64,000 bases of DNA from Phoronis australis (GCA_002633005.1 NMRA01000163.1:710884-774883), one strand, 5' to 3'. Counted from the stretch's first letter, positions 2,820 to 53,095 are shown. Notes: generated by a model not told the origin, from the sequence alone. Program-made: numbers and translations.

Positions 2820-4086
2820 CTGAAAAAAGTGTTAAAACTATAATGTCATGTTCAAACCAAATGGGACAGTTTCAGAGATTCAGTTTTTAACCATGGCAAA
2901 TGAAATGAAGAAACACCTGATGTATACAGTCATGTGCATAGTTACTTAGATGACCAACAATGTCATTGCTAGAAGTTTAATTGAATTGCATTTTTCCCTG
3001 TTAAGCTGGTTAGAAAACGAAAATCTGATTTTCACTCTCATAAAATTGGTCTCATAATATTCCTTACTACGGTAGAAATTTATTTCATCTGTTACCAACT
3101 GAAATCATAGGCAATGCACATAATACACCATGCAATGCGCAATGTACACGCGCCATTTTTGAATTCTGAGTTTAGGGTTGGCCAACCTCAATAACCCCTG
3201 CAGTGTTTTCTTGAGTTATTGTCAGTTTTAATGTCCTTCAATGTAATGGAAGTAGAATAAAAGACCACAATACAATGATATCTTAGAAACAGCTGACCAT
3301 TCATATGAAACCTTCAGATACCATTCTTAATGCACTACAAAACACTAGTTGGAATTGTTTCTTAAATGTTTCATAATTGTGTGTCGGATTGACAAAACAT
3401 AGGGCTACGATTTTTACAAAAAATAATCAAAATTTATGGAAGAATATAAAGCGATAATTTAGGAAACAGTAACACTACTTTGGAGATTTTATTTTGAACA
3501 TTTATATCAAATGAAATTTATCGATGCTTTCCTATGAATCCACCGCTCTCTTTCGCTCAGTTTTACCAAAAAAAAACATAGCCATGTGACCCAAGTGAAA
3601 AGAAATTGTCTAAAAATGTCATCAGAAAAAATCGTCTACAGGGAGACCGCTGAGGGAAATCAGCTGTTACGGATTCATTTTCATGAAGGAGAGTAAGGAT
3701 CAACCAAAAAGAGAATTTTTGTATGCTTCTGAGAATAAAATATTATTGAAATCTCTATCAATAGCGGGTAACCTGTTCTGACAGTAATATCAGCTCTATA
3801 ACAAGTCCTTTAGAACAACGTAGAAAAATAAATATTTCTCCATAATAAGTAATAATTATGGAATGTATAAAGATCTCTGAAAAAATTGAGACTTTTAAAC
3901 TAAAAAATTTCAATGACGTAACTTTAAAAAACACCAAAGGAATTAGTGACACATTGGATTCAACATGCAAACAAAGTATGTACTAAGAACAAAGAAACAA
4001 AAAGCTCATTTTCAATCAACAATAAATACAATGTCTTACTTTTAATTAGGAAAAAATAGAGAGCACTGCCAATATCTAAAACGTAC

Positions 4087-4272
4087 TTGTTCCTTGAAAA
4101 TGTTTCCAATCATAGAGTTATCCGTCCAGTTCTTGACAACCGGCTCCAACATGGCAACAAAGTCCGAGTGACGTTGGTGAAGAGCGGGTATCTTGAAAAA
4201 CATGCACTCAATATCCTCCGCGCTAACCACAGGCTGGGAAGTTTCACCAGCCTTTTCCAATATGTTTCGCAC
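4087..4272 (-). CDS. BCR: BCR/ABR-like DH-domain exon (VRNILEKAGETSQPVVSAEDIECMFFKIPALHQRH...GNIFKEQ)
   Basis: 186-nt phase-0 exon inside ORF 4042..4299. TSQPV...IE..FFK.P.L...H matches BCR [25 protein letters not shown]. Confidence 0.92.
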
Positions 4273-4936
4273 CTGCAAGAATATTTTTTGACTGAACAAG
4301 TGTCTAAACTGTATTATACCGTATTATGCCGTATTATTAGTGAAGAACAATTTTATTGGGCATAGCGCCCAGTCAATTTAATGCGCACCCTCAATTAAGA
4401 TCAAAAAAGCGAATGGGTGTCTAAGTCTTTGTGAACACTAATCTCACATGATTTTTCCCCAAAATCTACGAGACTTGCCTACTTTAATTATTGACAGTCA
4501 GCATTTCAGCGACTCCTCACTTTATTCAGGTGCAAAAGTACTCTCCTAATGCTTTATTTGACTCATGCTCACAAGGCCGACGTTAACATAACTTCCTAGC
4601 ATTTCCTGCACAGACCGCAAGTGCAATTAACTCGCTTTAACCCCATCCTAAATTTAACCACCTGCTGCATTGACACCAAAGGGTAAAGGCAGTTTTATCT
4701 CAGTCGCCAACTGCAAATTAGTTGCTTGTCATTCTGTCAATGGTGACAACTTATAGAGTACTAATCAGCATAAAATTGACAAAATTTATTAGTCGAATGG
4801 GAGCAATTTAAAACTAATTTAACATTTTTAACTTTCAAGCGAAAAGACCATATAAAACAAATATTATTCAGAAAGCAATATAAAAGCATTGATTGAAATA
4901 TTAATATGCACAATGTAATATAATGAATATTGATAC

Positions 4937-16478: not shown

Positions 16479-17279
16479 ATTGTTCGGATCAAATAGCACT
16501 AACAATGAAAAAATTGAAAGTCCCACCTCGTGTGATTCATTGCTGTTTACTTCCTACTTCGAAATACGAGTAGAGTTACTAGAATTTATACAAAACATTA
16601 TAGTAGTTTTTTTCCAATCCAAGTTTGTCAAAAAGTCATTAATTGATGTAAATACTGGTTTCAAGCACTACAGATAAATATATTTGTGTATTTTTTCTGT
16701 ATATATGATATAATAGATAGTTTTAGGACATTATATTTTATTTTGCTAATATAAAGACAGCTCTGTTTTGATCGCGTTCCAGCTATGACCACCAGATGTC
16801 GCACTTTGACGTACTGACCCCTGAGTAACATGATTAATGGGAACTGAAACCAATTTAACGTGCCATATGTCCCTCGTGATAGAAGAAGCGGCTATTGTCT
16901 TCATTAGAAAATCGGCACATCACTATACGAGGGAAGCTGACAGTGAATGTTCTCATGCATACATGATACATGTCTAAATAAAAATAAAATTCTCAACAAG
17001 CATGAATATGGTTTTCGCGCGATTTTACAGTGAGCTTGCTGCTCTTGGAACTTGTTCATAGTTGACAAAAATATACTTTCTAGCCAGAGGTCAAAACCCT
17101 TTGACAATATTTATCTATCTCTCAAATTAAAGCATATGACACCAGTTCATTTATCACAAAATTCTTCAACAGAAATTAAAATACTACGGTATTCGCAGCA
17201 ATGACTAAATACAGTGGTTCGGGTTATTTATCATGTAAAATGCAATACTGAATTCGTATCTGTTGGTAAAAAAGAATGT

Positions 17280-25690: not shown

Positions 25691-25854
25691 TTAACCGAGA
25701 AGCTTTCTTATTTGTCTATTTTGGTTTTCAAGCTTTGGCTGTGTTTTGTCTACTGCGGCGTTGATTCGATCTAACTGTTCATTTTGGTGCACAATCTCTC
25801 CTTGAAGATCCACACTAAGACCTTTGAGTCGGTTTAATCCAGCAGAGATGTCAC
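25691..25854 (-). CDS. SNAP29: SNAP29 exon 3 (C-terminal Qc SNARE motif and stop)
   Basis: (G)DISAGLNRLKGLSVDLQGEIVHQNEQLDRINAAVDKTQPKLENQNRQIRKLLG*, phase-1 acceptor TTTTTTCAG. Confidence 0.93.
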
Positions 25855-26780
25855 CTGAAAAAATCACACTTTTGACATCTATTGGTGGAATGATGACATG
25901 ACAACTGCAAACAGTTTCACCAGTAGATAAAGAGGGAGTGTATTTCCATGATCTCTTTACATCACAGTAAAATTTCACCAATTTCGGACAAAAACAATTG
26001 CCACAATTGCATTTTTTTCATTTTTCAAGACTTCTTCAATATTGTTGTGAATGCTCATGAGTTTTCAAAATATTGTCTGTCAGTAGCTATATCACAGCGC
26101 TTGAATGTTTATATTCAGTTGGTACTACGCATCACAACACACAGCATCCCTTTTGTTTTAATAAAAAAACTGTAACCAAAATATTTTGTAAGCAGTAACT
26201 CATGTGGTTTTCCTTATACCACTGCCGCAACAAGATGGTCCCATATTACACAGAAACACCTGAATCTCATGGTATTTACCCACAATACTGCAGTATCTGT
26301 CTACCAGTTCTTTAGTAGCCTCATTGTCAGAAGTTGATGGTGGATATTTATTCTGACATTCATTTTCGCATCACTGGAATTTCTCATGATATTTTAGGTG
26401 CCTTGCTTTTTTAAATTTTACTCGAGTGCATTAACTGTATGGCGACCTTATAATGCCAGCAAAGTTTTAGTGTTGTGATGTGGGCTATAACTTTGACAGC
26501 AGAAAGTTGGATAAACTTGTGAGGATAAGATACTTTTCCGGCATTATTCCCAGAACCAGCTTGGCATTTTCCACACGAACCCAATAAAACAATGCATTTT
26601 CCAACCTCCAAGACAAAAGAGATTTCTGTCCGGGACTGTTCTATTGGAAAATCCAAAATTCAATGCATTACAGCTAACTGCATTCAAATGGTCACACTGT
26701 GGACAAATTAACAGTTAAGACCATAAAACATCAACTTTTACACTGAGACTATGTATAGTACTGGGTTCCATTTAAGTGAC

Positions 26781-26993
26781 GAAAATATTGAGTAAAGATC
26801 CCCTTTTGGAACCAAAGAAACATTCCTTGATATGGTAAGTGTACAGCCGTTTCATCCATATATCACGGCCTTGATTCACCAAAGGCAGAGGGCGCACACG
26901 GTGGTGCGTGAGATATGGACGGAACGGCTGTACACTTACCACACCAAGGAACGATTCTTTGGTTCCAAAAGGGATCTTTTACTCAATATTTTC
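26781..26993. mobile_element. Foldback/palindromic MITE with arms of about 85 bp in SNAP29 intron 2
   Basis: GAAAATATTGAGTAAAGATCCC..TTTTGGAACCAAAGAA..GGTAAGTGTACAGCCGTT is mirrored at 26908-26993. Confidence 0.8.
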
Positions 26994-27223
26994 AACTTTC
27001 ACAATGACATTACATGAGACTTAATTTGCGGTAAAACAGCAATTATTAAAAATTTATTAAAGAAGTAACTTACTTTTTGTCTTAGTTGACTTGAAATCAA
27101 AATATCTCACAATCTCAATAACATAACTTAATCGGAATCGTGATCTTAAAATTGAATCAAAATTAAAAAAACACATACACTGATTTAAGAACATCAGTAC
27201 ACCACAAAATATGACGTTAAAAT

Positions 27224-29693
27224 AAACAAGAGCAACGCAGAGCGTTGAAATGCGCCCACAATTGCACCGCATACGGTATCCTTCTAGGGTTGTTTATTGG
27301 TACCATAAAGTGGCTAGTAGAGGGCATATATGTGGTATGTTGTACTTTGCAAAATGGAAAGGCATGGTCCTTGTCTCCTCAATAGGCTAGGGGCAAAATG
27401 TGAGCAATCTTCATAATACAAGCACATCCTATACACCAGTTGCTTAAAGCACCACAGAAACATAGCATTAAAAACAAATTTACCAGCATACGAGATTAGC
27501 ACAGCATTAGAATGCCAGAAACAAATTTCTACTTGGAACTTTTCCTTCATAGTCACGAAGTAACACAAAGTACACACCTGAAGAAAATACAGAGGTCAAT
27601 GTAAAATACTAAAATTGCCACTAGAGGCAAATACTAAAATTGCCACTAGAGGAATACCGGTAGTCAGAATCATCCTAAAGTCGTCATCGTCCGTTGTCAA
27701 CATCACATAAATACACTTGCTAAATTTAGTAAAGATCCTGCAAACGGTTTGGGAGATACAGCCATGGGCGCAAAAAAACAAAACTGCCACTAGGAGGCGC
27801 CACAGTAGTCCAAATCGTCTGAAAATCATTGTCAGCTGTCTTCCTTATAGTAAGCACATACACGCCAATTTTCACAATCATCCTTTGAGCGGTTTGGTTG
27901 ATAGAGGGGTGGACGCAAAAATACAGACTCGAAAACAGTAAAAATGGCCACTAGGTGGCGCAAACTACGTCGAATCCATCTGAAAACAGTAGGATAGCGT
28001 CATCTCACTAATAGGTGCCTACATACCAAATTTCATGAAAATCCGTTCAATACTTTTGAAGATACAAAGGTAAGCGTAAAAAACTAAAATTGCCACTAGG
28101 GGGCACACCGGTAGTCGGATCCGACCAAAAGTCGTCATCTTCCGTTGTTAACATCATATAAATATACTTACACAATTTGTAAAGATCCTGCGAACGGTTT
28201 AGGAGATACAGCCATAGGCGCAAAAAAACAAAACTGCCACTAGGAGGCGCCACAGTAGTCGAAATCGTCGGAAAATCATCGTCAACCATCCTCTACATAG
28301 TAAGCATATACATGCCAATTTTCACAATCATCCTTTGAGCGGTTTGGTTGATAGAGGGGTGGACGCACAAAAACAGACTCGAAAACACTAAAAATGGCCA
28401 CTAGGTGGCGCAAACTATGTCGAATCCATCTGAAAACGGGAGGATAGCGTCATCTCACTAATAGGTGCCTACATACCAAATTTCATGAAAATCCAATAAG
28501 GACTTGTGAAGATACAAAGGTAAGCGTAAATAAACTAAAATTGCCACTAGGGGGCACACCGGTAGTCGGATCCGTCCAAAAGTCGTCATCTTCCGTTGTT
28601 AACATCATATAAATATACTTACACAATTTGTAAAGATCCTGCGAACGGTTTAGGAGATACAGCCATAGGCGCAAAAAAACAAAACTGCCACTAGGAGGCG
28701 CCACAGTAGTCGAAATCGTCGGAAAATCATCGTCAACCGTCCTCTACATAGTAAGCATATACATGCCAATTTTCACAATCATCCTTTGAGCGGTTTGGTT
28801 GATAGAGGGGTGGACGCACAAAAACAGACTCGAAAACACTAAAAATGGCCACTAGGTGGCGCAAACTATGTCGAATCCATCTGAAAACGGGAGGATAGCG
28901 TCATCTCACTAATAGGTGCCTACATACCAAATTTCATGAAAATCCAATAAGGACTTGTGAAGATACAAAGGTAAGCGTAAAAAAATTAAAATTGCCACTA
29001 GGGGGCACACCGGTAGTCGGATCCGTCCAAAAGTCGTCATCTTCCGTTGTTAACATCATATAAATATACTTACACAATTTCGTAAAGATCCTGCGAACGG
29101 TTTAGGAGATACAGCCATAGGCGCAAAAAAACAAAACTGCCACTAGGAGGCGCCACAGTAGTCGAAATCGTCGGAAAATCATCGTCAACCGTCCTCTACA
29201 TAGTAAGCATATACATGCCAATTTTCACAATCATCCTTTGAGCGGTTTGGTTGATAGAGGGGTGGACGCACAAAAACAGACTCGAAAACACTAAAAATGG
29301 CCACTAGGTGGCGCAAACTATGTCGAATCCATCTGAAAACGGGAGGATAGCGTCATCTCACTAATAGGTGCCTACATACCAAATTTCATGAAAATCCGTT
29401 CAGGACTTTTGAAGATACAATAAAAAAATAAAATTGCCACTAGGGGGCACACCGGTAGTCGGATCCGTCCGAAAGTTCGCACATGCCGTCCCATTCATGA
29501 ATGGAACATAGGTGCCAAATTTCATGAACGTATGTCAAAGGGTTTTGGAGATAGAGCAGCGGACGCCGGACGCCAGACGCCGGACGCCGGACGGACGCCG
29601 GACGGACGGACGGACGGACGGACGGACGGACGGACGGACGGACAGAGATGACGGCATAATGCGTCCACATATAAATATGTGGGCGCATAAAAA
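27224..29693 (-). mobile_element. Helentron-associated non-autonomous element (HINE/DINE-1-like) with internal tandem array
   Basis: Subterminal inverted repeat ATGCGCCCACA (27250-27260) and TGTGGGCGCAT (29678-29688). 14-bp hairpin at 29659-29688, (GTCC)n microsatellite at 29559-29645, central tandem repeats, short hairpin CAACGC-AGA-GCGTTG (27233-27247) and T-rich ends on the minus strand. This is the DINE-1/HINE layout. Confidence 0.85.
27605..29530 (+). repeat. Higher-order tandem repeat: about 4.3 units of 450-451 bp, each made of three diverged monomers (144/161/146 bp), every monomer with a CTCF-consensus motif
   Basis: The unit recurs at 27642, 28092, 28543, 28994 and 29436. Motifs are GCCACTAGGGGGCAC, GCCACTAGGAGGCGC and GCCACTAGGTGGCGC. 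Confidence 0.92.
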
Positions 29694-30104
29694 TGAAACA
29701 GTGCAATAGAATTGATAGGTTTTCAAAAGTATTACAAATCGAGGTGGTTTTTAGAAATCAACATGTTTATTTCGCATTTTCCCAGAGGTTTTGCAGTGTA
29801 GGTGTTTGTAACCCAAAAACAATTTTAGTGAGCCCCAATTGGTTTTGTAATAGGCAAAGACCAAAATATGAAATTTCTAAAAAATGCAATGATGAATCAA
29901 AACTGTCAAACCCCTATGAGAAAGTTTTACAGGGACATTGAGTAATGTTAGCATGGTTTGTGCCACACAGCTGTCACTTGTCAACATTTGATCTTTTGAC
30001 CTTGTGTGAAGACATATACTAAGCCTTAATTGAAAAATTTAGGACTTTACTGAGAAAAAAATAAGAACTCTTATTTTACAGAATGAGAATAACTTTCAAA
30101 TTAC

Positions 30105-30441
30105 CTAAATAGTTATCCATTTCAAGTTCTCTTGCATCGTCACTCATGTGAGCCTCTGCTTGCGCAAACCCACCCGTGTTAAACTGGTGAGTATTTCTTG
30201 TTGCCTTAGAACTACCTGCAGCCGCGGCTTCATTGTAATTTGGTAAATTAGTCCTCGAAGATTGATTTGGATCCCCAGTGTCGCTAGATGATTCCTGTTG
30301 ACCTTTAGAGAACCAGTTTTTAATCCCACCAAATATACTTTTAATGTTATTGATATGACGCTGGGATACTGTTAGATTCTTATCAATATCTTGAACTTTT
30401 CTCTCAACGTTGTCAAGCTGTTCACCCTGATGATGAAGTTC
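30105..30441 (-). CDS. SNAP29: SNAP29 exon 2 (end of Qb SNARE motif and linker)
   Basis: ELHHQGEQLDNVERKVQDIDKNLTVSQRHINNIKSIFGGIKNWFSK...DDARELEMDNYL. 337 nt, phase 0 to 1. SQRHIN.IKS.FGG is characteristic of SNAP29. Confidence 0.95.
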
Positions 30442-30817
30442 CTGAAAATTAGAGAAGACAGCTCATCAACCACAATAACGCCAGAACAGAATGTTGTCAA
30501 GAGAAGAAACTTATCAGGATGATTGGAGGCCCAACCAGTAACCTACGAACTAGGACAAGAGCAGCTTTAAAATGAGCCCAAGTTTAAATAACTACCATAA
30601 CTACATTGTAAATGAATCCAAGATTTGGACATAGGCCCAAAAACAACACGCATAGTGCAACTGTGCCTATGTTGTAGCACATGCTTATTTACCATGATTG
30701 TGTAAGAATTGTCAGATCACTGCCTTGAATTGAAGGGATGATATTGTAAACAAGTTTTAAGAATCAAATGTGTACGTGTTATCATAGACCTTAGAAGGGA
30801 TAGATTAGAATAAGAGT

Positions 30818-31654: not shown

Positions 31655-32790
31655 ATTCATGTGGAGAATTTCTCCATTACACAGGTCACAGCTCTGAGTC
31701 CCTCAGTCCCAGACAACCTTTAGGATCCCTATTCATCATGCCCTTAGTATTGCTGTAGATCTGAGCTAATGAAGTGGAAAGTTAATAGCTAGCACTACTT
31801 TCTTAACAATGGTGGTCCTTATTACACCCAGATTGTTTTTCTACAGCATTTGCACAGAGTTAAAGCCTGCAATATGGAGAGCAGTTTTAACTTAGTACAT
31901 TAGTACATTTTAAATATTTCAAAAAGATTAAAAATTAATTTGTGTTGATCTTGACAAAGGGCCACTTCCCAAAGGAAGGTTGGTTTCAAATATTTTTCAC
32001 ACCTGTTTTCATTACTTTATTATAATACTAATGTCTACTTGCTTTTTTTTCTTACCGGTTAGGGTTGCTATCTTTTTATTTTGTGTTTGCCCGACGCATC
32101 AAAACAACTTAGAACAGAAGTCATCCCTGAATTTTCCAGATTACAGCTACACCAAACATGTCACAGCATGTCCATTAATTCAAGTTCAATCTTTATCAGA
32201 ACTCAAATCATAAAGTATATACAGACCTGCAAATATAGTGATAGCCAAACTGAAGATTTGGAACATCTGGACAATATAGGTTGCAGTAATTGCATGACTA
32301 TTCTAACTTTTCCTCAGTCATAAAAAATGAAATCACAGCTCTTGCCCACCAATGTAGCTTTGATGTATAATCCACGTGATATTGTTAACTCTGATCAGCG
32401 TTTGTAAATCACCGAGTATATCAATACGCGCGGTAGTTTATCTTCAATCGAACCCAATGTTTGTAGTTTTTAGCTTAATAGTTCATCGATTTTTAAAAAT
32501 AAAAAACCAAATTCCATCTGAATACAGCTGTATTATTTGCTTTTAATGGAAACTGTTGGTTAATGCATTTTGAAAATTCGCCAGTATGTACAGGCAGAGG
32601 TGTTTACTATAGTTTATGGTCGGTAGCACTTAATTGGGTCTTGCTCGCACCGGACAATGTGGTCATCGCAACTGAGTCCGACTCTGGCGCTGCTCTCTCT
32701 TTGATCCCTATAAACGCTGCTCCAAGGGACGAGCAGTGAAAAGTCACGCATATCTTTAGAAATGCGTGAATTTCATGTAAGCCTATTATT
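31655..32790. repeat. About 1.15-kb old repeat; diverged inverted copy at about 51880-53095
   Basis: Colinear reverse-complement blocks, e.g. GATATTGTTAACTCTGATCAGCGTTT (32378) vs AAACGCTGATCAGAGTTAACAATATC (52284); AATTGGGTCTTGCTCGCA; TATCTTTAGAAATGCGTGA. Confidence 0.85.
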
Positions 32791-33265
32791 CACAGCATGT
32801 ATATGTACCTATAAAACAATCTATGAATTTTACCCAGTGTATTCAACGAAATACAAGCTAACGAAGCTGAACTTAAAAAAATAATGACGGCGCTGGAGCT
32901 GGGTGACCATATGCAACATATCAGTGTCTTTAATCTTAGTGTGACTGTCAAGGCTCAACGGCCACGCCTCGGGCTTATAAGCACACTTCAAAACCAGGAA
33001 GTGATGAGTCGTGACTGGAAGACCACGATTACATCCAGTTAGTTATTGTCGATTCGATCAACTGTTCTCGTATTTTGTCTCACAGCACCACAATTGTTAT
33101 TCAGTTGGTCAGTTCAGATGCATGAACGACACGGCGGAAAACCGATTATCTTACCCACCCAAACTGCAGATGTTGGCCTACTTTAACCACTAGAGTCGTA
33201 GACCGAGTCATCGAGAAATGTGTTAAGCTTTGTGACTCACAACGTTAACAACTCGCTTGCCTTAC

Positions 33266-33433
33266 CTCAGCCGTACTAATTCCTATTTGTTCGGATTCAT
33301 GAATACTCTGCAGAGCCCGGTTACAACTATCCAATTGTCGATTTTTTGAAGCTTCGATTTGATCCAAGACTCTTGCCCTCCGAGACTCCACATCAAATTC
33401 ACAATCGTCGTAATCAAAATAAGAATTCGACAT
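33266..33433 (-). CDS. SNAP29: SNAP29 exon 1
   Basis: MSNSYFDYDDCEFDVESRRARVLDQIEASKNRQLDSCNRALQSIHESEQIGISTAE|GTAAGG. 168 nt, phase 0. Joined CDS is 669 nt (222 aa). Confidence 0.93.
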
Positions 33434-35111
33434 TTTTCAGTAGCCTATACGAAGTCAGTAAACAGTTGGGTTGCGTAGTTGTAGTAAATCAAAAGCTGAG
33501 CAAAATGGTAAACATTTTCCCTACTTTCCAAGTGAATTGTAAATGTAATGTTGTTGCATGTACGATTTTAATGTAAACAAGGCATAAAAATGATAACTGG
33601 TATCTAAACTTGAAAAACATGAGAGTTACGGTCTCGCTGGTTCCCTGCGTGCCGCTAGGTGGGGCGGTAGCCGCGCCAGCACGCAGGTATCACTTAAAGA
33701 CATAGTTTCACACCAAAACAACTGCTTTTCAAAACAAATAATAGCACTGTGTGAATCTGTTGCACAGGCTGTTCTTGTCCGAACATCTTGGTTAATGAGA
33801 AAAACCCAGCAGTAATGACCTTTTTCCGACTTCAGCCGAGACGAGAGAACAGGCATAATGTGGTTACATAACTACGGTCTGTGATGTCAAACTCAGGAAG
33901 ACAGCTGTGTATTGCAATGGCTACAAGCAGCCAACCCTCCATTGTCAGCATGCAGTGAGTAAAAAGGGAAACACGTTTTAATTTAACCACTTATATGATT
34001 GAAATTTGAGTGGAGGTGGCAATCTCAAAGACAGAATTTCAAGCACACTTGAAATGGAAGTCTTCTGAAATTGTTTTTTAAATTCATGTGTTAATCTATT
34101 GACAGAAAACAAAACCCAAGGCATCAAGCAATAATACCTGAAGATGCCAATGAACATATCATTTCAGCGTTTCATTACGGCAAGTCAATTCTATCATGCT
34201 TTTGTCACTGAGTCATAGAAACCAAAGAACAAATCAGAGAACGATTATGACTTATTAATCCACAGTTCAATTAAAATCAAGTGCTTTCAGTCGGAATTAT
34301 ATATTTGGCTTCTGCAGTGAAAGACTTTCAAGGTAGTTGAAGGTTCACGCTACTGTACATAAGTCACAACTGTACAGTGCAGTAAAGTTTATATGTGAGT
34401 TAAAATGATCTAATCTTTTACCAAAATAAGTAACTTAGAATGCACAGTATTTTTGAACATTTAAGCATTACAAACGTTATCCAACAACAAGACAAATTTA
34501 CATGATATGAAAATGGATATGCCTAACTATTACCATGGCGACCAGGTATTTCCTTATATTAAAATTCGACAAGCATGATTTGAAAAAAAGTTGCATGTAA
34601 AAAGGATTGGAGGTTGGAAGCTTCGCAATCCAACATGGCCTATTACTCTAATTAAGAGCCTTTATATTTTGGGCCTTAATAAACTGAATTAAGAAAGCAA
34701 AAAGTTACAACGCATGTATTGAAAGAACGATTCAGCTGTACGTAAAATTTAGAAAAATATGAATTATGTTGTGACACATAACCAAACCTTGAAGCGCAAT
34801 TGACTTTAAAAGAAGAAACGATTTCAAAACTTTCCCAATTGTTTTAAAGCTGAGTGTATGGTCAACTGAATGAGATATTCACACTGCAATAATTAGAATA
34901 TTCCTTATGTTTTTGTACAAAAACAAACATTGTGCAAAGTTGCTTTTTGTAGTAGCTTTCCACTAGCCAATAGATCACAGCTACGCCACGAGTGAGCCCA
35001 GTGAAACACCCCCATCTGCTGATCACCATACAACGTGCTGCTTTAGTAAAACTCTTAGGAGAGGTAATGAGACATTATTGGTAATGACTTCATCCTCCAT
35101 GACTGATGGTT

Positions 35112-35885: not shown

Positions 35886-37703
35886 AAAAAGCAATGGTGC
35901 TTTCTGCACTGCCTACGGCTGCAGCAACAGTTAATTTAAATTCGTGACTTATGCTTTTTTGCTTCCTCAATGATTAAGATAGGTGATGTTCATGATTGAA
36001 ACAGAGGATATTCAGTCTGCGTGAAACTGTTGCCAGTCATTCAGTGATGGACTGGGTGATTTTAATTTAATGTCTTTACTGTTTCCTGCGTTTGATTGCT
36101 GATATGGAACATTATCAAAAATTGTTTGCATGATTTTGGGAACTACTGATTAGTTTATTCTATGCCCATTGATGCTTCTAATTACTTTTTTCATTTCGTT
36201 CTGCAGTCTTAATACATTCAGATCTAAAAGATAATTACATTTACTATTATTTACTATTTCTATTATTGTTATTTATCATATATTTGTTTTTATATCTATT
36301 CTTGATTATTTATTATTATCTATTTTTTGTTTATTTGCTACTACTTATTTAAATTATTTCTTGTGATCCCACACAGTCAACATCCTGGCTGTGAGTCGTT
36401 GATCAATAATCTATATTTTATGATCATGATATGGACTTCAATGCATAATTAATATTACTTTTTTGGTTTGGTAACCTACTTGATTATTTGCCATAGGAAG
36501 TGGTGAAGGAAGTGTTCTTTTAAAGGCACATTGAGCCATACATCTGTGAGCTCTTAGATAGTATGTGTAGTACCTTGGAAACTTGTTACACTCCAGTGAC
36601 GATGTCGTTTGTTTAGATTTTTGTTTTGACATGGGTCTTAAAACATCAAGTCAGGAGATAAGGTGTCGTTACTGTATGTTATTTACTTTGAAGTTGGCCT
36701 GCCGACGCAGGCTGAATATGTCTTTAACTAACTGCTGATAGTTGAGTTAAAAACTGTGAATTATTTACTAGAGCTGGAAAGCTTCGTAAAAAATACCCAA
36801 AATGGATTGCGTATTCAATAGGCATCTTGGCTGTTTTATGGGGCATACAAGGCAGGTTTACTGGAATTAAGGCAAGAGTTCCATCTCTTGCTGGTTTGGA
36901 AACCCTACCCCTTTTGCCTCCAGTTTCATTCACCACAACCCACCCCAATTAGCTACTCATTTCAGATACCATCGGGCACGGATGCTTGGGGTCCAGTGAA
37001 TCAGTCCCAAATAGCGACTCCACTGTTCCCTAAAACTACTACGTTTTTGGGAGTTTCCTACGTTGAATTCTCAATATGATTGAAAATAAGAAGGGATCTT
37101 TTCATGCAATGCGCCAAATTTAAGGACCAAGTCCTTAAATGTTTTGACTGAATTAAGAGCTCAGTTTTTAGTTATATTTTTATAAAATGTCATAAGTCAA
37201 AAGACTCGGAGCTCATAATAAAGATAAAATGATAGAAAAATATAAAAACTGTGAGCAAAGAACAAAAAATGCCTAAAAGATTTACCAAGGATCCAGGGTG
37301 GGGGGTCAAAGGCGTCTGGACCCCCCATTTTTCTTGATTGTTGTGATATCAGTGCCCTTATAACAGATATATTACTCACGCATAACAGTTAGTGCAAGAC
37401 TATAGTTTCATTGATTCTGAGTAAAGGAAGTTCTAGAAAATTATATGGTATTACCACTTCCATTATAAGAATTGCATGCTGCTTACCACCGTGGAGTAGT
37501 TTAGTTAGTTCCAATAAACTATTTGACACAGCAAGGCTTATATTCCGAGTTCGTTATATCAGAATATTCCACTGTCGGATAAACAAGTGACCAGTGTTCA
37601 AGAAACAAGTAAGTTGGCAAATGATGAAGTAGGTTACCAAAAGCGAAAGTGAGTGTTTCGCGAACTTGGAATTCCAAGATCCCTCAAGTGATCTTGAGAT
37701 TAA

Positions 37704-39157
37704 AGACATAGTTTCACACCCAAAACAACAGCTTTTCAAAATAAATAATAGCACTGTGTGGATCTGTTGCACAGAGCAGTTCTTGTCCACACAGCTTGGT
37801 TAATGAGAAAAGCCCAGCAGTAATGACCTTTTCCGACTTCAGCCGAGACAATCCTGAGAACAGGCATATGTGGTTAAATAACCGTCTATGATGTCAGACC
37901 AGGAAAACAGCTGTGCATAGCAATGGGTACAAGCAGTCAACGCTCCAAAATTTTGCTTGCTTCATTTGATAATTCCTTTCAATTTCATTTGTTGGCATAA
38001 TTACATTGTTTTTTGCCAAGGAGAAGTAAAGACCAGTGTATCACAGATACTCAAGCCTAATACAAAATATTGCAGTTTACATTTTTTTTCATTTTCAGCA
38101 GTGAGTAAAAGGGGTGACACCTTTTAATTTAACCACGTATATAATTGAAATTTGAGTGGAGGTGGCAATCTCTATGACAGATTTACAAGGATACTTGAAA
38201 TGGAAGTCTTCTGAACATGTTTTTTTTAAAGTTATGTGGAAATCTATTGAATTAATAATAAACCCAAGGCATCAAGAAATATTACCTGCAGATGCCAGTG
38301 AACATATTATTTCAGCCGTTCATTGCGGCAAGTTAATTCTATCATGCTTTGGTCACTGAATCATAGAAGTCAAGGAACAAATCAGTTGACGATTATGATT
38401 TAATCCACAGTTCAAATTAAAATCAAGTGCTTTCAGACGGATCTATATATTTGGTTTCTACAGTGAAAGACTCTCAATGTAGTTCAAGGTTACTGTACAT
38501 AAGTCACAACTCAAGTAATCTCAGTACAGTAAAGATTATATGCGAGTCAAAATGATCTAATCTTTTACCAAAATAAGTAACTTAGAATGCACAGTACATT
38601 AGAAGCATTACAAACCTTATACAACAACAAATTTACATGATATCAGTGGATATGCCTAACTATTACCATGGCGACCAGGTATTTCATTACATTAGAATTC
38701 GACAAGCACGAATTGAAAAAAATAAAAAGGATTGGAGTCTGGAAGCTTCACAATCCAACATGGCCTATTTCTCTAATTAAGAGCTTTTACATTTTGGGCC
38801 TTGATAACTTGAATTAAGAAAGCAAAACGTTACAACGCATGTATTGAAAGAACGATTCAGCTGTACGTAAAATTTAGAAAAATATGAATTATGTTGTGAC
38901 ACATAACCAAACCTTGAAGTGCAATTGACTTTAAAAGAAGAAACGATTTCAAAACTTTTTCAACTATTTTCAAGCTGAGTGTATGGTCACCTGAATGGGA
39001 TATTCACACTGCAATAATTAGAATATTTCTAAAAAATGTTCCACAAAAACATAAACATTGTGCGAAGTTGATTTTTTGTAGCAGCTTTCATCAAAATGTA
39101 TCAAAGCCAAAACTTCACCAAAAACAAAATAGCCGATTGAACATGCCCTTCAGTTCA
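37704..39157 (+). mobile_element. Kolobok-like left arm, copy B
   Basis: Starts TTAA-AGACATAGTTTCACAC; colinear with 33698-34960 and with the reverse complement of 43623-45208. Confidence 0.8.
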
Positions 39158-40960
39158 GTAGAAGTCGCCATGTTGTCGGTGCCGCCGGAAATGAGACTAA
39201 ATCCAACGGGAATTGTGAGCATTGTTATCACTCAATAAGTAACATCTGCTTGGCTGAAACCAATGAAAACTATTGAATCGCTCAGAATAGTAGGTATAGA
39301 TCTTTCTCACTAAATTCCATCGTAAATTTTTGGTGAAAATAAATTATGCCAGTATGACACACATTCAATCATTAACCCTAGCATGCATGCACCTGTACAT
39401 GTACATAGAAATATGCGTGCGAGAGCTCGTGAACTCCAGGATCTAGGATATGTCGTAAGAAGGGACTAACCTCAAATTTCGAAGGAAACTTTCTCTTGAC
39501 ACTTAAATGAAGTACCAAAAGCTTTTCTATTGTTCCCTCAGGGGTGCCCCATACCTGCCTGTGGAAGCTCAGATAGGATACTCCTATGTAATCCATTTAT
39601 TTGCCAAGCAGTCTACACACAGTGATACCAACGGAAGGACCGCATAAAATGCCCCCTCCTCCTTTCTGCAGGCTTGGGACTGGCAAGATGCAACACATAA
39701 CAATGTGATGCAACTTGGCGGAGTTAGGCATTGTGGTTTCAACTGGACGTCATGCTAAACAGAACTGGCACAGTGGATTTTTGGAAATAATTCTCAGAAA
39801 AATAACACTCGAAACTGCATTTCCTAAGTTGTACATTGTCAAACAAGAGCAACACAGGAGGTTGAAATGTACTCACGAATGCATCGCTAATGGTGTGCTT
39901 CTGGGGGTGTATATTTGTATCATAAAAATGGCCAATAGATGGCACAAAATACATCTTCTTATGAGGAAGTTTAATTTTTTTAATTTTTGTGATACGTGTG
40001 TCCATGCACTATAGGCAACAGATTCGCAACTACACTCAGCTTACGGTAAGTGTATTCTGACGGGAAATTTTTGCATCTATTTTACTGTCCAGTAAAACGA
40101 AAAAAAAAAATTATTTCGGCATCGAAACGCTGTGCAAATTCTTCCAGTAGTAGAACTATTGGTATCGTGCTACTACCACCTGACCACGACCATTATTAGC
40201 AGACAATGTACTTACCAGAAGTAAAACATGCTATGTCTGCCAGGTGTCGAACAACCAATCAGTTTTAGTGAACAAAAATTGACAAATTTTAAAATTGGTC
40301 ATGAAGATATGACTTCCCAAACTACAGCTCATTTTGGCAAAACTTTTCTGATAATTTGAATGGGGTAGGTGAATTTGGGGCACTCCGGGCCCTTACTAAG
40401 GCCAAAAAAGTATGATACATTTCTAGAGAGGACAGACAAGGGGCTATCAGATGCACAAAGAATTTTTGAAATCGAAAACAAAGTAATTTTGGACCCAAAA
40501 ATGACAGTTGGGTGGGTCACTTTGGTGGACCACTATTACCTAATTAACGGGCCGGTCACGCTGAAACTTGGGGGCTGACCATTTAGAAGATTGGCCTTTC
40601 GAATAAGAACATAAACTTTAAAATCGAAGCCTATATATAGTCCAGGGTTTTTAGGAGGCGGAAAAAGTTTTTGTCTCCATTTTCAAAAATTCTTTTCCAG
40701 ATCGAGGTAGAATGCTGATAAATTAAACCCGCCAAGTTTGAGTTGGATTGGATCATTAGTAAGGTCACACGGCAAGATCAAAGTTGAAAAACATCATTTT
40801 TAGACCTTTTCACGCCTTAAAAATTTTTTGACCCCGATTTCAAAACTTCTTTCATTGTTGGATAGCCCTTTACTTACTGACTCCAAAAACGTAAGTCGCC
40901 ACTTCTGGTAAGCCCTAATAAGGTCACAGCAGAGGATCAAAGCTGGCGTGCGTTCAGTAG

Positions 40961-43622: not shown

Positions 43623-45208
43623 GAACTGAAGGGCTATTTTGTACTTGGTGAAGTTTTGGTTATTGTTTACAATTCGACTCCATTAACTTACATACTTGAT
43701 ATTAATATTTTCTGAATCCTCTCGCCAGGGTTATCATGGTGATTCCAAAAATATATTACTCGTAGCGATTAGGCTCTTCTTATTGATGCATTCACCGTTT
43801 TTACGAGGTACATTTTGATGAAAGCTACAACAAAAAGCAACTTTGCACAATGTTTGTTTTTGTACAAAAACATAAGGAATATTCTAATTATTGCAGTGTG
43901 AATATCTCATTCAGTTGACCATACACTCAGCTTTAAAACAGTTGGGAAAGTTTTGAAATCGTTTTTTCTTTGAAAGTCAATTGCGCTTCAAGGCTTGGTT
44001 ATGTGTCACAACAAAATTAATATTTTTCTAAATTTTACGTACAGCTGAATCGTTCTTTCAATACATGCGTTGTAACTTTTTGCTTTCTTTATTCAATTCA
44101 TTAAGGCCCAAAATGTAAAGGCTCTTAATTAGAGTAATAGGCCATGTTGGATTGTGAAGGTTCCAGCCTCCAATCCTTTTTCCACAGCAAATTCTTATTT
44201 TTTCAAATCATGCTTGTCGAATTCTAATGTAACAAACACCTGGTCGCCATGGTAATAGTTAGGCATATCTACTTTTATATCACGTAAATTTGTCTTTTTG
44301 TTCGATAACGTTTGTAATGCTTAAATGTTAAAGTACTGTGCAGTCTAACTTACTTATTTTGGTAAAAGATTAGATCACACATAAACTTTACTGTACCGAT
44401 ATTATTTCAGTAGTGACTTATGTGCAGTAGCGGTAACCTTCAACTACCTTGAAAGTCCTTCACTGTAGAAACCAAATAGATAATTCCGACTGAAAGCACT
44501 TGATTTTAATTTGAACTGTGGATTAAATCATAATCGTCCTCTGATTTGTTCTTTGACTTCTATGACTCAGTGACCGAAGCATGGTAGAATTAACTTGTCG
44601 TAATGAATGGCTGAAATAATATGTTCACTGGCACCTTCAGGTGATATTTTTGATGCCTTGGGTTTGTTGTTATTTCAATACATTAACACATCAAATCCAT
44701 TTCAAGTGTCCTTGTAATTCTGTCATTGAGATTGTCACCTCCACTCAAAATTCAATTATATACGTGTTTAATTAAAAGGTGACACCCTTTTTACTCACTG
44801 CTGAAAATGAAAAAAAAAATAAAACCGCACTATTTCGTATTAGGCTTGATTATCTATGATACACTGGTTTTTACATCTTCTTGGCGAAAAACAATTTAAT
44901 TATGCCAAAAAATGGAGTTGAAAGGAATTATCAAATGAAGCAAGCAGAATTTTGGAGGTTGACTGCTTGTAGCCATTACATGTACAATACAAAGCTGTTT
45001 TCCTGAGCTGACATCCAACAGACAGTTATATAACCACATACATGTATACATGGTCTCAGAATTGACTCGGCTGAAGTCGGAAAAGGTCATTACTGCTTGG
45101 CTTTTCTCATTAACGAAGCTGTTCGGACAAGAACTGCCCTGTGCATTAGATTCACATAGTCCTATTATTTGTTTTGAAAAGCAGTTGTTTTGGTGAGAAA
45201 CTATGTCT
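43623..45208 (-). mobile_element. Kolobok-like left arm, copy C (inverted)
   Basis: Ends CTATGTCT-TTAA at 45201-45212; reverse complement colinear with copies A and B. Confidence 0.8.
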
Positions 45209-45324
45209 TTAAACGAATAATAGAAGAATATGGGGTATGAAATAAAAAGAAATGTGGTTCATAAGCAAACTTTATTAACAGTCAACACATGTGTATACAT
45301 ATTAACTACACCTAAATACATTAG

Positions 45325-47770: not shown

Positions 47771-50700
47771 CAATCATCCCAGTCAAGCTACGTCAGTTTA
47801 GAAACAATTACCAATTAAGACCAGAATAACATAAAGAATGGGCAGTAAACATAATTAAAACGGAAACAATAACTCACGACAAACGAATTCATGTCCACCA
47901 TTCGACTGACGGCGAAATTTTACTTAACAGCTGCTCACTAGATGTCGCAAACGCTTGCTTAATCTCAAGATCTCTTGCGTGAAATAGAAATAGAAATTTA
48001 TTCCAAATTCACTCAAATTTCCAAGTTCACGCACGTCAGGCTCAACTTGTCGAACAGACAAGTCATCTGTTAACGAACAAGACAAGCACGGCAAACAACA
48101 GAGGGCGCCACTTGAAAACGAATGACGTCACGGAGTCTCAATCTGAGTGATCCCCGAACCTGCATTATGGTATTTTTATTTTGGGATGAGACAAAAACTG
48201 GTGAGGCTTTGCTGGGCTTTGCGCCATTGGACGTTTTGAAGCTGCAGCTGAAAGGTAAGATCATGACTATTTCTGCTTTATTCTGCAGAATTTGCATTGC
48301 AATCAATACAATAGAGTGAAACAACCGCTTTACTTGTTAAGATACAACATCTTTCTTATTTTGTTTTTTATTTTGACAGACATCACCCTCAAAATCGGAT
48401 AATACAGTTGATGTTCTTTTTGTGAGATTAAATGATGAATGACGCAGGTATCTGTTTCAAGACGTAATTAGCCATCTTGTCGAACTTCAGTTTTCCAATC
48501 CTAACCTCGGACCAACAAGTGAGGTCAACTATCGACGGTTGTGTTCATAGCATTCCGGGAGGTAGCGCAATGATCAAGTTCTGCATGCGCCGCAGTCCCC
48601 GAGCTTCCGTCCCAGGTCCGGGGGTTCTGTACAAGACGTGCCGTCCGGTTCATGGTAACCCCTGAACTAATAGATACGTAAATTTAGTCATGCATTTATG
48701 TTTGAATGTAGATATTTATGCATATATGTAGTCATGTAACCTTTTTGCGTATGTATTCAGGCTCTCAAAATGAAAGAATATAGCCGTTACTTGCCTTCGT
48801 GTTAAGTTGTATTTCAGAAAATAGTCTCATTGCTACGCAATACAGAGTTGAATACTAGTTTGACAACGATTGAAGACGCTAATGTTTCCGAGCATTTTGT
48901 GATTGAATTAAAGGGCATCGGAGAAGTGTTGGCAAACTTTGGAACACCAGTAGCCGAATCCACGGAAACGGCTCCCCCACATGAAATCACTAGTCATGTT
49001 CCATTGAAAGGCCGAAATTTGACATAACGGAAGAACAACTCTCATTTCAAAAGTGAGTCCCCAGTGGTATCAGCTGCATCAATTTATGGGAACTGTCCTC
49101 ACCCCAGAACGCCTGTGGCATGGGCGTAATTGGTAGGAACGTGTCGTAACTTGCACGCGCGCACCCAGCCTAAAGTATTGCGGGGCTCGAATTTTTCGGT
49201 ATGCGGACCTTTTACTTACAAAAATCAACGAGGACTAAAAAAAATAAAAATTAAAAAAACGGGCCACTAGGTTCGGGTCTACGAATTGTGCATCCGCGTA
49301 GAATTCCTGTGGACGCATTTGTCTCGTTTACTCGAACTTGTTGCTTCGCTAAGGCGGACTTTTTTGCCCAATTCGCCAAATTGGAGGACTCCTTCGATCC
49401 CTCCGAGGCCCCCTGGGTGCGCCCTGAACTTGGGCGTGTATTTTGCCCTATACTGAGGTATCTTCTCGATGGACATTTCGGCTTCTGGGTGTCGTGTCGC
49501 GGGGTGAGTAAATCTAACAAGTTAAATATCATCAGTATCGGGGCGGGGATATCATCATTTGGCCAGTATTGTTTCGTGTACCTTGACCCTCAGGTTTGCA
49601 GTGGTCCGAGGACTTTGAATGTGCGGTGGCACTACCCATTAGGCCAATGTGGACAATATCTTCCCTTGTCCGCAATTGACTTACTCCACACTGCATCATT
49701 CAGCTGTAATATAAGGCAGAAGCTTACCAAGCTCATTTTGTTCAAAAGCCAGTGAATTTTATGGCAGTCGTACAAAAACAGCATATTTGGTTCCAATTGT
49801 GATTTTTTGAAGTTGATGCGATGTGCTAGTTTTAAGTTGTCCAAATTTTGGAATAAAAAAAAATCCGTACGACAGCTTGAAGTTCAGAACGGGTCGGTAT
49901 ACGTTTTTCTCAGCATCGCTTGATGTCGGTTAAAATGGTTCAGGCTTTCTTTCCCCCTGCGTCACCTGATGCCAGCTGAACTTGGTCGAATTTTTCTGTC
50001 TACAAAGTGAGTCGGCGGTTTTCAAAATGACCCATACACAGGTCAGAACCAATTTTGTATTTTTTGGCCTTTTGAGGTTTCAAGTATGGAAATTGTTTGA
50101 ATCCCTGGCCAAAATCTTTGAAAAGAAGTGGATGCTCGTTGATGAAAATAACTATTTGCATTTTTTAAATCGTATATAACTATACCTTTGAAGCCCCGTG
50201 CAACTGTGTTTTGAGCTGAAAGTGTAATTATATTCAAATAAAACAAAATTGCTAGGGAGAATTAAATAGCAGAAACAATTGTTCATCTCATCTACTCCAT
50301 AGCAAGCTGTGTCAAGTTTTTAGTATTAACTTGCCAAATTAAAAAACCTTAAACCAGTTGAACCTGAAGTGGACATTAGCAAATCATGTTCTTCAGCCGC
50401 GGTTAGTTCGAATGGATAAGTCAACAGGAAATGGACTTAGCTTGTTAGCGTGTCTTCACAAGCAGTCAGATTAGCGTAATGGAAAAACAACAAAACTGAG
50501 CCAAAATAGTCTCAGCAGGCTGACATTTTTGTCTTGAAGCAGATTTCATAAAAGCTTTGTTATTAACTGTCTGTCCTGTTGCAGGCAATATTTGTGTTGA
50601 CTACGTGAAGTTTTAAAGAACATACGAAAAATGCTTTGCTTTTACACGCCATGGTTATTAGTTATTATGTGGCTGTCTTTATTTTTTAGTTGGTCTTGGC

Positions 50701-50773
50701 ATCGCCTTCTCTGTCGGCCAAGCCACTTTTAAGATAATTATGTAAATTAACTGATATCTTCTGACGAGAAGAG

Positions 50774-50835
50774 GACAATGATTTTTGGACGACGCCAACT
50801 ACTGTTGCGCCTCTTAGTGGCAGTTTTGTTTTTGT
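50774..50835 (-). repeat. Solo fragment of one HINE array monomer (CTCF-like motif)
   Basis: Reverse complement AAAACAAAACTGCCACTAAGAGGCGCAACAGTAGT...TCGTC..AAAATCAT matches the monomer at 28225-28283. Confidence 0.7.
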
Positions 50836-51879
50836 TTTATGTGAGTTTTTGTAGTTTCGCAATATGATGGTGATGTTTGAAATAAAAAATTGAAACTTGT
50901 TTGGAATGGCGTCTCAATTTCTTGTTTCTGAGGTTACATGTTTTTGTTACCCTCGTCATTCTTAATGTTATTGATGGAAAATCTGCGATTCCATGCATGA
51001 TGCGCAGATCCAATTGGGTACAATGGTATAAACATTAACATTGCGAGTATTTTATTTTAAATTCTGAATCCACCCAATCGCTGCTGTATTTTGACACAGG
51101 GTGTATGATACAATGGTTTAAATTTTGAGACAATTTTGAGTGTCAAAATGTACACAATTAATTTTCCACTTAGGATAAACACTCAGAGTATCACTGAGGT
51201 ATCACCAGCAGTCTTACAGATTCATTTGTGACGGCGCAAACATGAATATACGCTAACAAAGACATTTTTTCAATTTTCATAAAGCGTGTATACATTGTAC
51301 ATGTTCTTGGTTGAAGTAGACAATTACAGCCAGTTTTAGGAACTGTCTATCCAAGCACATGGTAATCATTGGCCAGCAGTGTTTCAGTGAAATTCATTGG
51401 CGGATTTATGAGGGTGGGTCTTTTCACGACCTTATAATGACCGTTTAAGCAACGCGTGGGTCACATGTTTACAAAGCTTTACGTTACCAATATTCTAAAA
51501 CCTCGATAGTATTTAAAATTTCAAATTTTCTTCTGAAAAGTTACCGGCTTCCCTGAGGACACCGTGCTTTTGTTTACATATCGTTCAATATGGCGGACCG
51601 CGTGTCACGCGCTGTCTGGCTTGCGAGTACAGTCGTGTCACCTCTATGTATATAGCTCATTGGTCAGCCCCTCGAGCTGGAAACTCTCTCGCGCTGGCGT
51701 AAGATTTAATTCTAACCACAGTGGAAAAATCAGCCGGGATCACCTTTTCAATGTTGTGGCAATTTCAATGTTGAAAAGTGACCCAAGGCATCCATGACGA
51801 TCCTTCCTCTCGTGAAAAAGTGACCCTCGGCAGAGGCCCTCGGCTTTGAAGTTTGTTGGAAGGTGTTTTACACAGGGGC

Positions 51880-53095
51880 CGTGAATAATACGCTTACAAG
51901 GAAGTCACGCATTTCTAAAGATATATATGCGGAAATTTTCACCGCTCCTCCTGAGCGGCTTGTATCAGGATCAAAGAGAGCGAGGCGCCGGAATCAGGTA
52001 CCGGTACAATTGTGATGACCGCATTGCCCGATGCGAGCAAGACCCAATTAAATGTAATTATCCGACCATAAACTGTATTAAACATCTCTGACTGTACATA
52101 ATGGAGAACTTTCGAAATGCATTAACCACTAATTTTCGTTATAGACGAACACCACGGAGGTATTCAGCTGGAAAAAAACAACCAGGTAGGGTTTTCGATT
52201 TTCAAAAATCGATGACATAATAATCCAAACCTACAACCATAAACTACCGCGCGTTTTGATATAGGCCTACGCGGTGGATATATAAACGCTGATCAGAGTT
52301 AACAATATCACAGGGATTCATTTTTTTAATATTCTTTCAATCTCGTTTAACCAAATTTATGACCAGGAAACAATTGTACTTAACTTGTGCCCACTTTTCA
52401 TTTTTTATTAATGACAAAGAGCTAGTCAGAATAGTTATTTAGTCAGTGCCACCGAAAATGTCCGGAGATTCCAAATTTTGAGTTTGGTTATTACCATATT
52501 TTCACTTTTTTATTTATTTTATGATTTGGGTTCTAATAAAGATTAAACTTTAAGGACACGTGAATTGTTTAGGGTACCTGTAATGTGGTAAGTTTAGGGA
52601 TGGGCTCACAAAGAACTTAATTAATTAAGTTTAGCTGGCGATCAAAACCTACCACTGTTTTGATACTTCAAGTTTAAAGCTTAGATAAAAAAGTTATCAG
52701 CGCGTACCCGGTAAGAAAAAAAACAAGTGGGCAGAAGCATTAAAAATTAAATAAAGAAAACCAATACGAAACTTGTCGTTCCTTTAGAAGGTGGCCCTTT
52801 AATTGTGAAGAAAAACACAAGTTAAACTTTTTATTCATTTTGTAATGTTTATAATGTACCAAGTTAAAACTACTTTCCAGATTTGCAGGCTATAACTCTG
52901 CAAATGTCAAATAAAACCAAATTGGGGATACTAACAACAACCATTGTTGAGACAATAATGCCAGCAATTAACTTTCCAGTTCATTCGCTCAGATCTACAT
53001 CAATGCAAAGGGCGTGCTGAATAGGCATCGGAAAACTTGTCTGGGGCTTAGGGAGTCATAGCAGTCACAATTGTAAGCGAGAAATTCTTCACGTA
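51880..53095. repeat. Inverted, diverged copy of 31655-32790
   Basis: Colinear reverse-complement blocks over the whole length. Confidence 0.85.

Follow-up and report, generated by a model that had tools for sequence, protein, structure and literature searches.

The SNAP29 locus of Phoronis australis raises the question of why an intron should hold an array of close matches to the CTCF consensus, all in one orientation: are the sites kept because a protein binds them and, if so, does the host profit or the element that carries them? We have addressed this question in a stretch of 64,000 nucleotides (the window), in which positions are counted from the first letter.

A Helentron of the HINE type in an intron of SNAP29

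The array is part of a non-autonomous Helentron of the HINE/DINE-1 type that measures 2470 bp (27224-29693) and lies on the minus strand, its orientation being assigned by the published HINE convention. The left end was determined from junction contigs and reads, and the right end was placed from the terminal structure alone. Read along the minus strand, the element consists of a T-run, an 11-bp 5' subterminal inverted repeat (subTIR) with an inverted repeat partner, a (GTCC)n microsatellite, the central repeats, a second subTIR, a 3' stem-loop and another T-run. The 5' subTIR (29678-29688) is the exact reverse complement of the 3' subTIR (27250-27260; 11/11), which was recognized by this match. 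Together with its partner (29659-29672) it forms a terminal hairpin at 29659-29688, with 14-nt arms (29659-29672 with 29675-29688) that are 93% complementary and a predicted DNA fold of -10.1 kcal/mol. The microsatellite (29560-29643; (GTCC)n on the minus strand plus a 7-bp variant) was detected by Tandem Repeats Finder (TRF) with periods 4 and 7, and the stem-loop outside the 3' subTIR (27233-27247, minus strand) folds into a 6-bp stem with a 3-nt loop. The central repeat (27629-29559) was resolved by TRF and alignments into 4.1 copies of a 451-bp higher-order repeat (HOR) of three monomers, A-B-C, plus a terminal monomer that is fused to the microsatellite.

The same order of parts, with subTIRs of 11-15 bp, is given for HINE/DINE-1 elements in the accessible text of PMC4067079 and PMC7492417. 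The structural hallmarks of the group are present, i.e. both subTIRs, the 5' inverted repeat, the 3' stem-loop and a (GTCY)n stretch followed by central tandem repeats, and the contigs that cross the left end display the interspersed, high-copy distribution and T-rich target. The Helentron-type identity claimed in the initial annotation is thus borne out, both by this anatomy and by the junction contigs. No target-site duplication is apparent in the flanks of 27224-29693, for which the filled site and a deduced right end are at hand. The element is overlapped by only two stop-to-stop frames, of 93-105 aa, one of them made of microsatellite; judged by its sequence it is without coding capacity, as is usual for a HINE. 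There were no Rfam matches at E<=1 over 27100-29800, which leaves the reading as a structured RNA or tRNA-derived SINE without support. A scan for bacterial promoters gave no matches either, a result that is irrelevant for animal DNA.

The coding exons of SNAP29 were located by tblastn with three homologues at 33254-33436, 30157-30456 and 25694-25852. Together with the GT/AG splice sites they delimit coding intron 2, between the second and third coding exons (25855-30104, minus strand), and so confirm that the element was correctly assigned to this intron. The SNAP29 exon has its best named homologues in a nemertean, an annelid and a brachiopod (three of the 18 matches were named to species), which points to a probable spiralian host. 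Nothing links the array to SNAP29; the insertion is one of hundreds or more.

The window holds several other features. The same SNAP29 intron contains a 213-bp foldback (MITE-like) element at 26781-26993, with 87-nt arms that are 87% complementary, which is multicopy by contig depth. A dispersed repeat of about 1.3-1.4 kb occurs in three copies that are 84-87% alike, one of them inverted (33694-34960, 37700-39100 and 43809-45212). Decayed LINE-like fragments were found as a pair that is 68% alike (31661-32796 and 51878-53092) and as a zf-RVT match at 90-704. Finally, a RhoGEF-domain exon at 4045-4323 on the minus strand (Pfam E 7e-5, below the curated cut-off) possibly belongs to a BCR-like gene adjoining SNAP29; in humans BCR and SNAP29 presumably share one chromosome band.

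A high-copy family and its RNA

The high copy number and mobility of the family are evident from DNA run X1, in which the region 26300-28085 recovered 24,537 contigs. In the flank the summed depth is about 50; it climbs to 1e5-1e6 precisely where the element begins on the left, and at 27224/27225 272 plus 141 contigs depart into unlike A/T-rich flanks, yielding at least 413 distinct junction contigs in this one run. Because summed depth is not copy number, we state the family size only as hundreds or more insertions, related subfamilies included. Some joints connect the element end straight to a C-type motif and thereby reveal shorter subfamilies.

Two remnants lie in the window itself. One, of a related subfamily (39841-39960, minus strand; 76% over 104 bp), combines the same end with one 18.7-bit CTCF-type site at 39929. 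The other is a lone B-type monomer fragment in opposite orientation (50768-50836, plus strand; 85% over 60 bp), in which the site has decayed to 12.9 bits through a change at a high-information position. Near-identical pieces of the element, devoid of flank, also turned up in runs X6, X7 and X8 (organisms B and C and a marine metagenome), among them one of 539 bp (8 differences, 10 gaps) and one of 287 bp (5 and 7). These pieces may reflect a close relative, horizontal transfer or contamination, which look alike in such data, and they were left out of the evidence.

The family is well represented in RNA, at about 1,600-2,000 reads per million (approximately 0.2% of the reads) in three raw runs of one study. 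Most of these reads stem from diverged copies, and 749 of them run past the left end into unlike flanks. In the regions 27200-28085 and 28500-28950 the first-mate strand ratios in the three runs were 34, 29 and 132 to 1. Passive intronic passengers would be expected to give about 1:1, and so either the element directs transcription or an A-rich plus-strand RNA was captured by oligo-dT. The ratios do not fix the strand of origin, since the library chemistry is unspecified; if the libraries were of the dUTP type, transcription would be from the minus strand, i.e. in the element's own 5'-to-3' direction.

An array of co-oriented CTCF-type sites

The trimeric 451-bp repeat and its recurring word had been described in the initial annotation, and both were recovered. 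TRF reports a period of 451 in 4.1 copies at 27629-29476 with 95% matches, the spacing within the HOR is 144/161/145-146 bp, and all 14 of the starts given for GCCACTAG were found on the plus strand (27786, 27947, 28092, 28236, 28397, 28543, 28687, 28848, 28994, 29139, 29300, 29436, 27617 and 27642). The three monomers have indeed diverged strongly, A, B and C being 52-67% identical in a first alignment. HOR copies 2-4 agree with one another at 98-99% and with copy 1 at about 90%.

A scan with a CTCF matrix had been suggested as a check. We used an approximate vertebrate count matrix, with a maximum of 29.6 bits, as the sole motif matrix, and it yielded strong core matches: the 12 intact, co-oriented sites score 23.0-25.4 of the possible 29.6 bits, which by this matrix corresponds to p of about 1e-8 to 1e-9. 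They are the top 12 scores in the 64 kb, the next best being 19.2 bits. When the bases of one HOR were shuffled 30,000 times, no shuffle attained 23 bits and 0.03% attained 20 bits. On the plus strand, the sites are those of monomers B1 (27784-27802, 23.0 bits), C1 (27945-27963, 25.4 bits), A2 (28090-28108, 23.2 bits), B2 (28234-28252), C2 (28395-28413), A3 (28541-28559), B3 (28685-28703), C3 (28846-28864), A4 (28992-29010), B4 (29137-29155) and C4 (29298-29316), and of the terminal monomer A5 (29434-29452); those in A3, B3 and C3 were also covered by the variants of the family.

At the edge of the array TRF and the matrix scan identified a 25-bp duplication (27604-27658, plus strand; 27604-27652 in TRF) with two decayed cores at 27615 and 27640 (11.1 and 8.6 bits), in which the G run is one base short. 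The duplication is common to other copies of the family, and many copies have an intact site there, as seen in pieces of such copies and in loose ends at 27624 and 27677. A further CTCF-type site, absent from the earlier list, lies in the left arm (27311-27329, plus strand). It scores 7.3 bits in this copy and 16.5 bits with the family-majority letter at 27315, where a change from T to C is present in 1254 of 1257 plus-strand reads of run X10 and in all the depth of DNA run X1. The left arm has no alignment with monomers A, B and C above shuffle level.

As for the surroundings of the cores, the optional upstream (M2/U) module of vertebrate sites, sought by an approximate consensus, does not occur; A-tracts lie upstream of every core. 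All three monomers carry a 3' cytosine, which would map to matrix position 17; a preference of invertebrate CTCF for such a cytosine is described in the accessible part of bioRxiv 10.64898/2026.10.19.759930.

The motif outside the family

The twelve copies are not evidence in themselves, because they go back to three or four independent variants that tandem duplication has multiplied. The same caution follows from organisms that lack CTCF. In viral contigs, a search for paired motifs found one locus, a 14-bp minisatellite (L148:2001-2181, minus strand); a search for motif plus HINE box found none; and one for the repeated HINE box found 29 loci, none with the microsatellite or at least three motifs. 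In prokaryote genomes paired motifs occur at 29 loci, and the 11 of these that were inspected are repeats, either coding or short and non-coding, and none is a HINE. Two bacterial loci, L164 and L171, are non-coding tandem repeats (50- and 166-bp units) in which the unit is the CTCF consensus. Because tandem runs of the same consensus thus occur in prokaryotes and in a viral contig, without any CTCF, we rejected motif copy number as evidence. The consensus repeats at L148, L164 and L171 provide a useful null for claims about motif arrays in general.

A straightforward explanation would be that the motif is a generic box of HINEs. The four 7-mer cores occur 54, 35, 11 and 42 times (142 in total) across 3.37 million characters from the oyster HINE supplement, which is at or below a rough chance estimate of about 60-110 each, and the oyster satellite consensus file contains one 7-mer core word, in a non-CTCF context. 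In addition, we used a set of at least 118 metagenomic HINE-like loci, chosen by the shared box plus microsatellite and hence blind to the motif. Of the 100 among these that extend at least 150 bp upstream of the shared box, none contains a CTCF-type match at p<1e-5 in that 150 bp, and one contains a match at p<1e-4; the loci belong mostly to two families and are without assembled arrays, which makes them a limited control. The generic-box explanation is rejected, as the motif is missing from the oyster arrays and from the metagenomic HINE-like ends. Judging from these sequence sets, the motif is family-specific.

The Phoronis window also has lone CTCF-type sites outside the family, on the plus strand at 16786-16804 (19.2 bits), 48092-48110 (16.3 bits) and 33649-33667 (11.5 bits). 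The first is located about 230 bp before a minus-strand frame of 262 aa, perhaps exon 1 of the RhoGEF gene, and the last lies directly upstream of the first coding exon of SNAP29. The 19.2-bit site suggests, by its sequence match, that CTCF-type sites exist in this genome.

Constraint on the motif

The initial annotation would have had to be abandoned if conservation in the motif did not exceed that in the remainder of the monomer. It does exceed it at both levels that we compared. Between the monomers, A, B and C agree in 13 of 15 core columns versus 50 of 129 elsewhere (Fisher 4e-4, with a test that was picked after the motif had been seen). In an unbiased scan statistic the motif emerges as the best 15-column window of the monomer, with P=0.027 (range 0.027-0.033); this unbiased result is borderline because there are only three or four independent variants. 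Variation in the 19-mer is confined to six positions, all of low information (P=0.003). When the left-arm site is added in its family-majority form, the core-only P of this test is 0.034, and of the five core positions that then vary, three (7, 11 and 16) switch only between the two bases favoured by the matrix. In every copy of monomer B position 12 is a disfavoured A (6%), and the first sites of a subfamily have decayed; perfect sites are therefore not required everywhere.

Among the copies of the family, none of the 39 variable positions falls in the 57 motif bases of the 451 (P=0.004), counted over the 40 of 78 variant rows that were listed, each row being a variant with a share of at least 12% and the 40 covering the 39 positions. 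Among these same 40 rows, the circular shifts with zero motif variants number 7 of 451, all within 5 bp of the true placement. Five or more motif positions among the remaining 38 rows would erase the signal, and when the count is limited to the DNA run, with 24 of its 27 rows listed, the test is weaker (P of about 0.04). The retention of CpG in the motifs versus elsewhere (0/2 versus 10/20) does not differ significantly (P=0.29), and a specific protection of CpG in the motifs finds no support on this basis.

Could such a pattern arise neutrally? A CTCF-like word may have been present in the ancestral monomer by chance or capture and then been duplicated, its slow change reflecting luck, local gene conversion or alignment bias. 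The small number of independent variants, the borderline scan statistic and the arrays in organisms without CTCF agree with such a history, as does the fact that the polymorphism count covers the 40 listed rows and that read depth, which peaks over the motifs, could dilute variant shares there. Against it, the comparison of monomer types and that of copies across the genome, which are partly independent, point the same way, and the positions that vary are of low information. When divergence as in the flanks was simulated neutrally on a star tree, only about 2e-4 of 400,000 trials retained p<1e-6 at all three sites. A purely neutral origin strikes us as distinctly improbable. The constraint on the motif, which is shaped like the base preference of CTCF, is real and moderately supported; constraint as it should be seen at a functional CTCF site is present at modest significance.

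The constraint need not come from CTCF. The box could be read by another factor, such as a different zinc-finger protein or the Rep/helicase of a Helentron, or could act as a DNA hairpin during array expansion, its likeness to CTCF sites then resulting from a quasi-palindromic shape. The core of monomer C folds into a perfect 5-bp stem (-4.6 kcal/mol), the A-tracts and the GTCG box that flank the motif are conserved blocks as well, and conserved palindromes or low-variability boxes are described for the monomers of clam DTC84 and oyster HINEs in the accessible text of PMC3879986 and PMC7492417. Monomers A and B, however, break the stem without compensatory change (only -2.9 and -1.8), which disfavours a pure hairpin. 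The substitutions track the degenerate positions of CTCF and other HINEs transpose without the box, so that an unrelated reader or a hairpin is, all considered, unlikely.

Host insulator or selfish element

CTCF orthologues have been reported in molluscs and annelids and are absent in flatworms. If CTCF does bind the array, each insertion could be an oriented boundary that blocks enhancers or anchors loops, and the family would be a mobile host insulator that reshapes genome folding. This would fit the strong, co-oriented sites under constraint, the enrichment of CCCTC-like motifs at squid TAD borders and the transposon-borne CTCF sites established in lamprey (PMC5504073) and zebrafish (PMC9341505), as far as the accessible text of these reports goes. 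Nevertheless, hundreds to thousands of strong intronic boundaries are likely to be harmful, and the constraint between monomers arose in master elements and needs no host benefit. In addition, annelid CTCF motifs are mostly single, in promoters and without directional arrangement according to the accessible part of PMC7854359. In a 2026 preprint (bioRxiv 10.64898/2026.10.19.759930), the available part of which also reports that invertebrate CTCFs prefer promoters, invertebrate orthologues bound DNA in replacement assays without forming loop-extrusion TADs, and a loop-extrusion insulator for the host is less likely for that reason. We regard a role as host insulator as quite unlikely.

The reading that we favour, with about as much confidence as doubt, is that of a high-copy selfish Helentron whose monomers keep a constrained CTCF-type site and probably recruit host CTCF at each insertion for the benefit of the element itself. 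It builds on what the sequence and the reads show, namely the HINE anatomy, the spread, the 12 strong sites, their constraint and the strand-biased RNA. An autonomous Helentron would supply the Rep/helicase that copies the element in trans by a rolling circle, via the subTIRs and the 3' hairpin. One ancestral site would have been multiplied by duplication, and master copies that retained it would have been favoured, since host CTCF would bind there. A nucleosome comprises 147 bp of DNA and the sites are 144-161 bp apart, so that a fully bound array would leave too little free DNA for nucleosomes. The occupied array may thus form an open, methylation-protected patch of about 1.7 kb, which could shield the element from silencing and help it to be transcribed or copied; any local barrier effect on host genes would then be incidental. 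Of the original proposal, which read motif retention as selection for protein binding and the element as a mobile carrier of oriented CTCF clusters, the Helentron, its mobility and the CTCF-shaped constraint stand, and the word insulator is weakened by the literature on invertebrate and annelid CTCF.

A stronger version, doubtful in our opinion, would have an actively spreading element in which a selected, oriented cassette of at least a dozen CTCF sites has evolved, too tight for nucleosomes; by means of host CTCF the element would stay open and be transcribed from one strand, and so scatter portable chromatin boundaries through genes; the family might then be a major source of CTCF binding in the genome.

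Relation to known systems and significance

Mammalian B2 SINEs disperse CTCF sites, and DXZ4, ICCE and DXPas34 are CTCF-bound tandem repeats at fixed single loci. Among the HINEs, the closest likeness is to oyster Cg_HINE, clam DTC84 and the pearl elements, for which the available text of PMC4067079, PMC7492417 and PMC3879986 describes the same 5' subTIR with inverted repeat, (GTCC)n and central repeats of 140-180 bp. The 3' subTIR with stem-loop, the T-rich target, the position-specific terminal monomer and the low-variability boxes in the monomers are shared with HINE/DINE-1 elements in the same three sources, and central repeats of 140-180 bp with such boxes are likewise known from the accessible parts of PMC7492417, PMC8268682 and PMC3879986. 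The Phoronis element differs from the HINEs described there by its three-monomer HOR, with units 52-67% alike, and in that its most conserved block is the top-scoring CTCF core, which the oyster HINE arrays lack.

Other mobile elements are comparable in function. In the accessible text of PMC6927752, Helitrons of Caenorhabditis spread clusters of heat-shock elements and are thus also rolling-circle elements that disperse dense sites for one host factor; that case concerns HSF-1 and overlapping short sites, with occupancy and gene effects demonstrated, whereas the Phoronis element is known from its sequence. Canonical CTCF cores are dispersed by the lamprey hAT-Tip100 repeat #274 (PMC5504073) and by zebrafish SINE3-1a and HATN9_DR (PMC9341505), but these have vertebrate hosts and ChIP or footprint support, and the available text describes no array of at least 12 co-oriented sites. 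The VNTR of SVA (PMC5007689, accessible part) is a mobile tandem repeat with clustered CTCF-family sites as well; it differs in belonging to a hominid retrotransposon and in having weak motifs that are mainly bound by BORIS. For the Helitron-minisatellite PATC insulators of C. elegans, the accessible part of bioRxiv 10.64898/2026.08.08.743475 proposes that internal repeats are anti-silencing and possibly kept by a selfish element; these differ by a DNA-mechanical 10-bp periodicity, in a species without CTCF and with no protein-binding motif. Our full-text literature search, which covered few subscription papers, found no description of CTCF arrays or sites in a Helentron or HINE. HINE central repeats, transposon-borne CTCF sites and Helitron-borne clusters for host factors are thus already known, and the CTCF-type array in a Helentron would be new.

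Conserved boxes in HINE monomers have been called likely protein-binding, without experimental evidence, in the accessible text of PMC3879986. If our reading is true, it provides a named protein candidate for the conserved box in HINE satellite monomers, and it extends the transposon-driven spread of CTCF sites from single vertebrate sites to arrays in a rolling-circle element. Data on the role of CTCF in spiralians are very scarce. The family places one and the same oriented cassette of 12 sites at hundreds of loci or more, where filled and empty alleles probably coexist, and would offer many natural replicates for that role and, if the reading holds, a natural experiment on CTCF function outside vertebrates.
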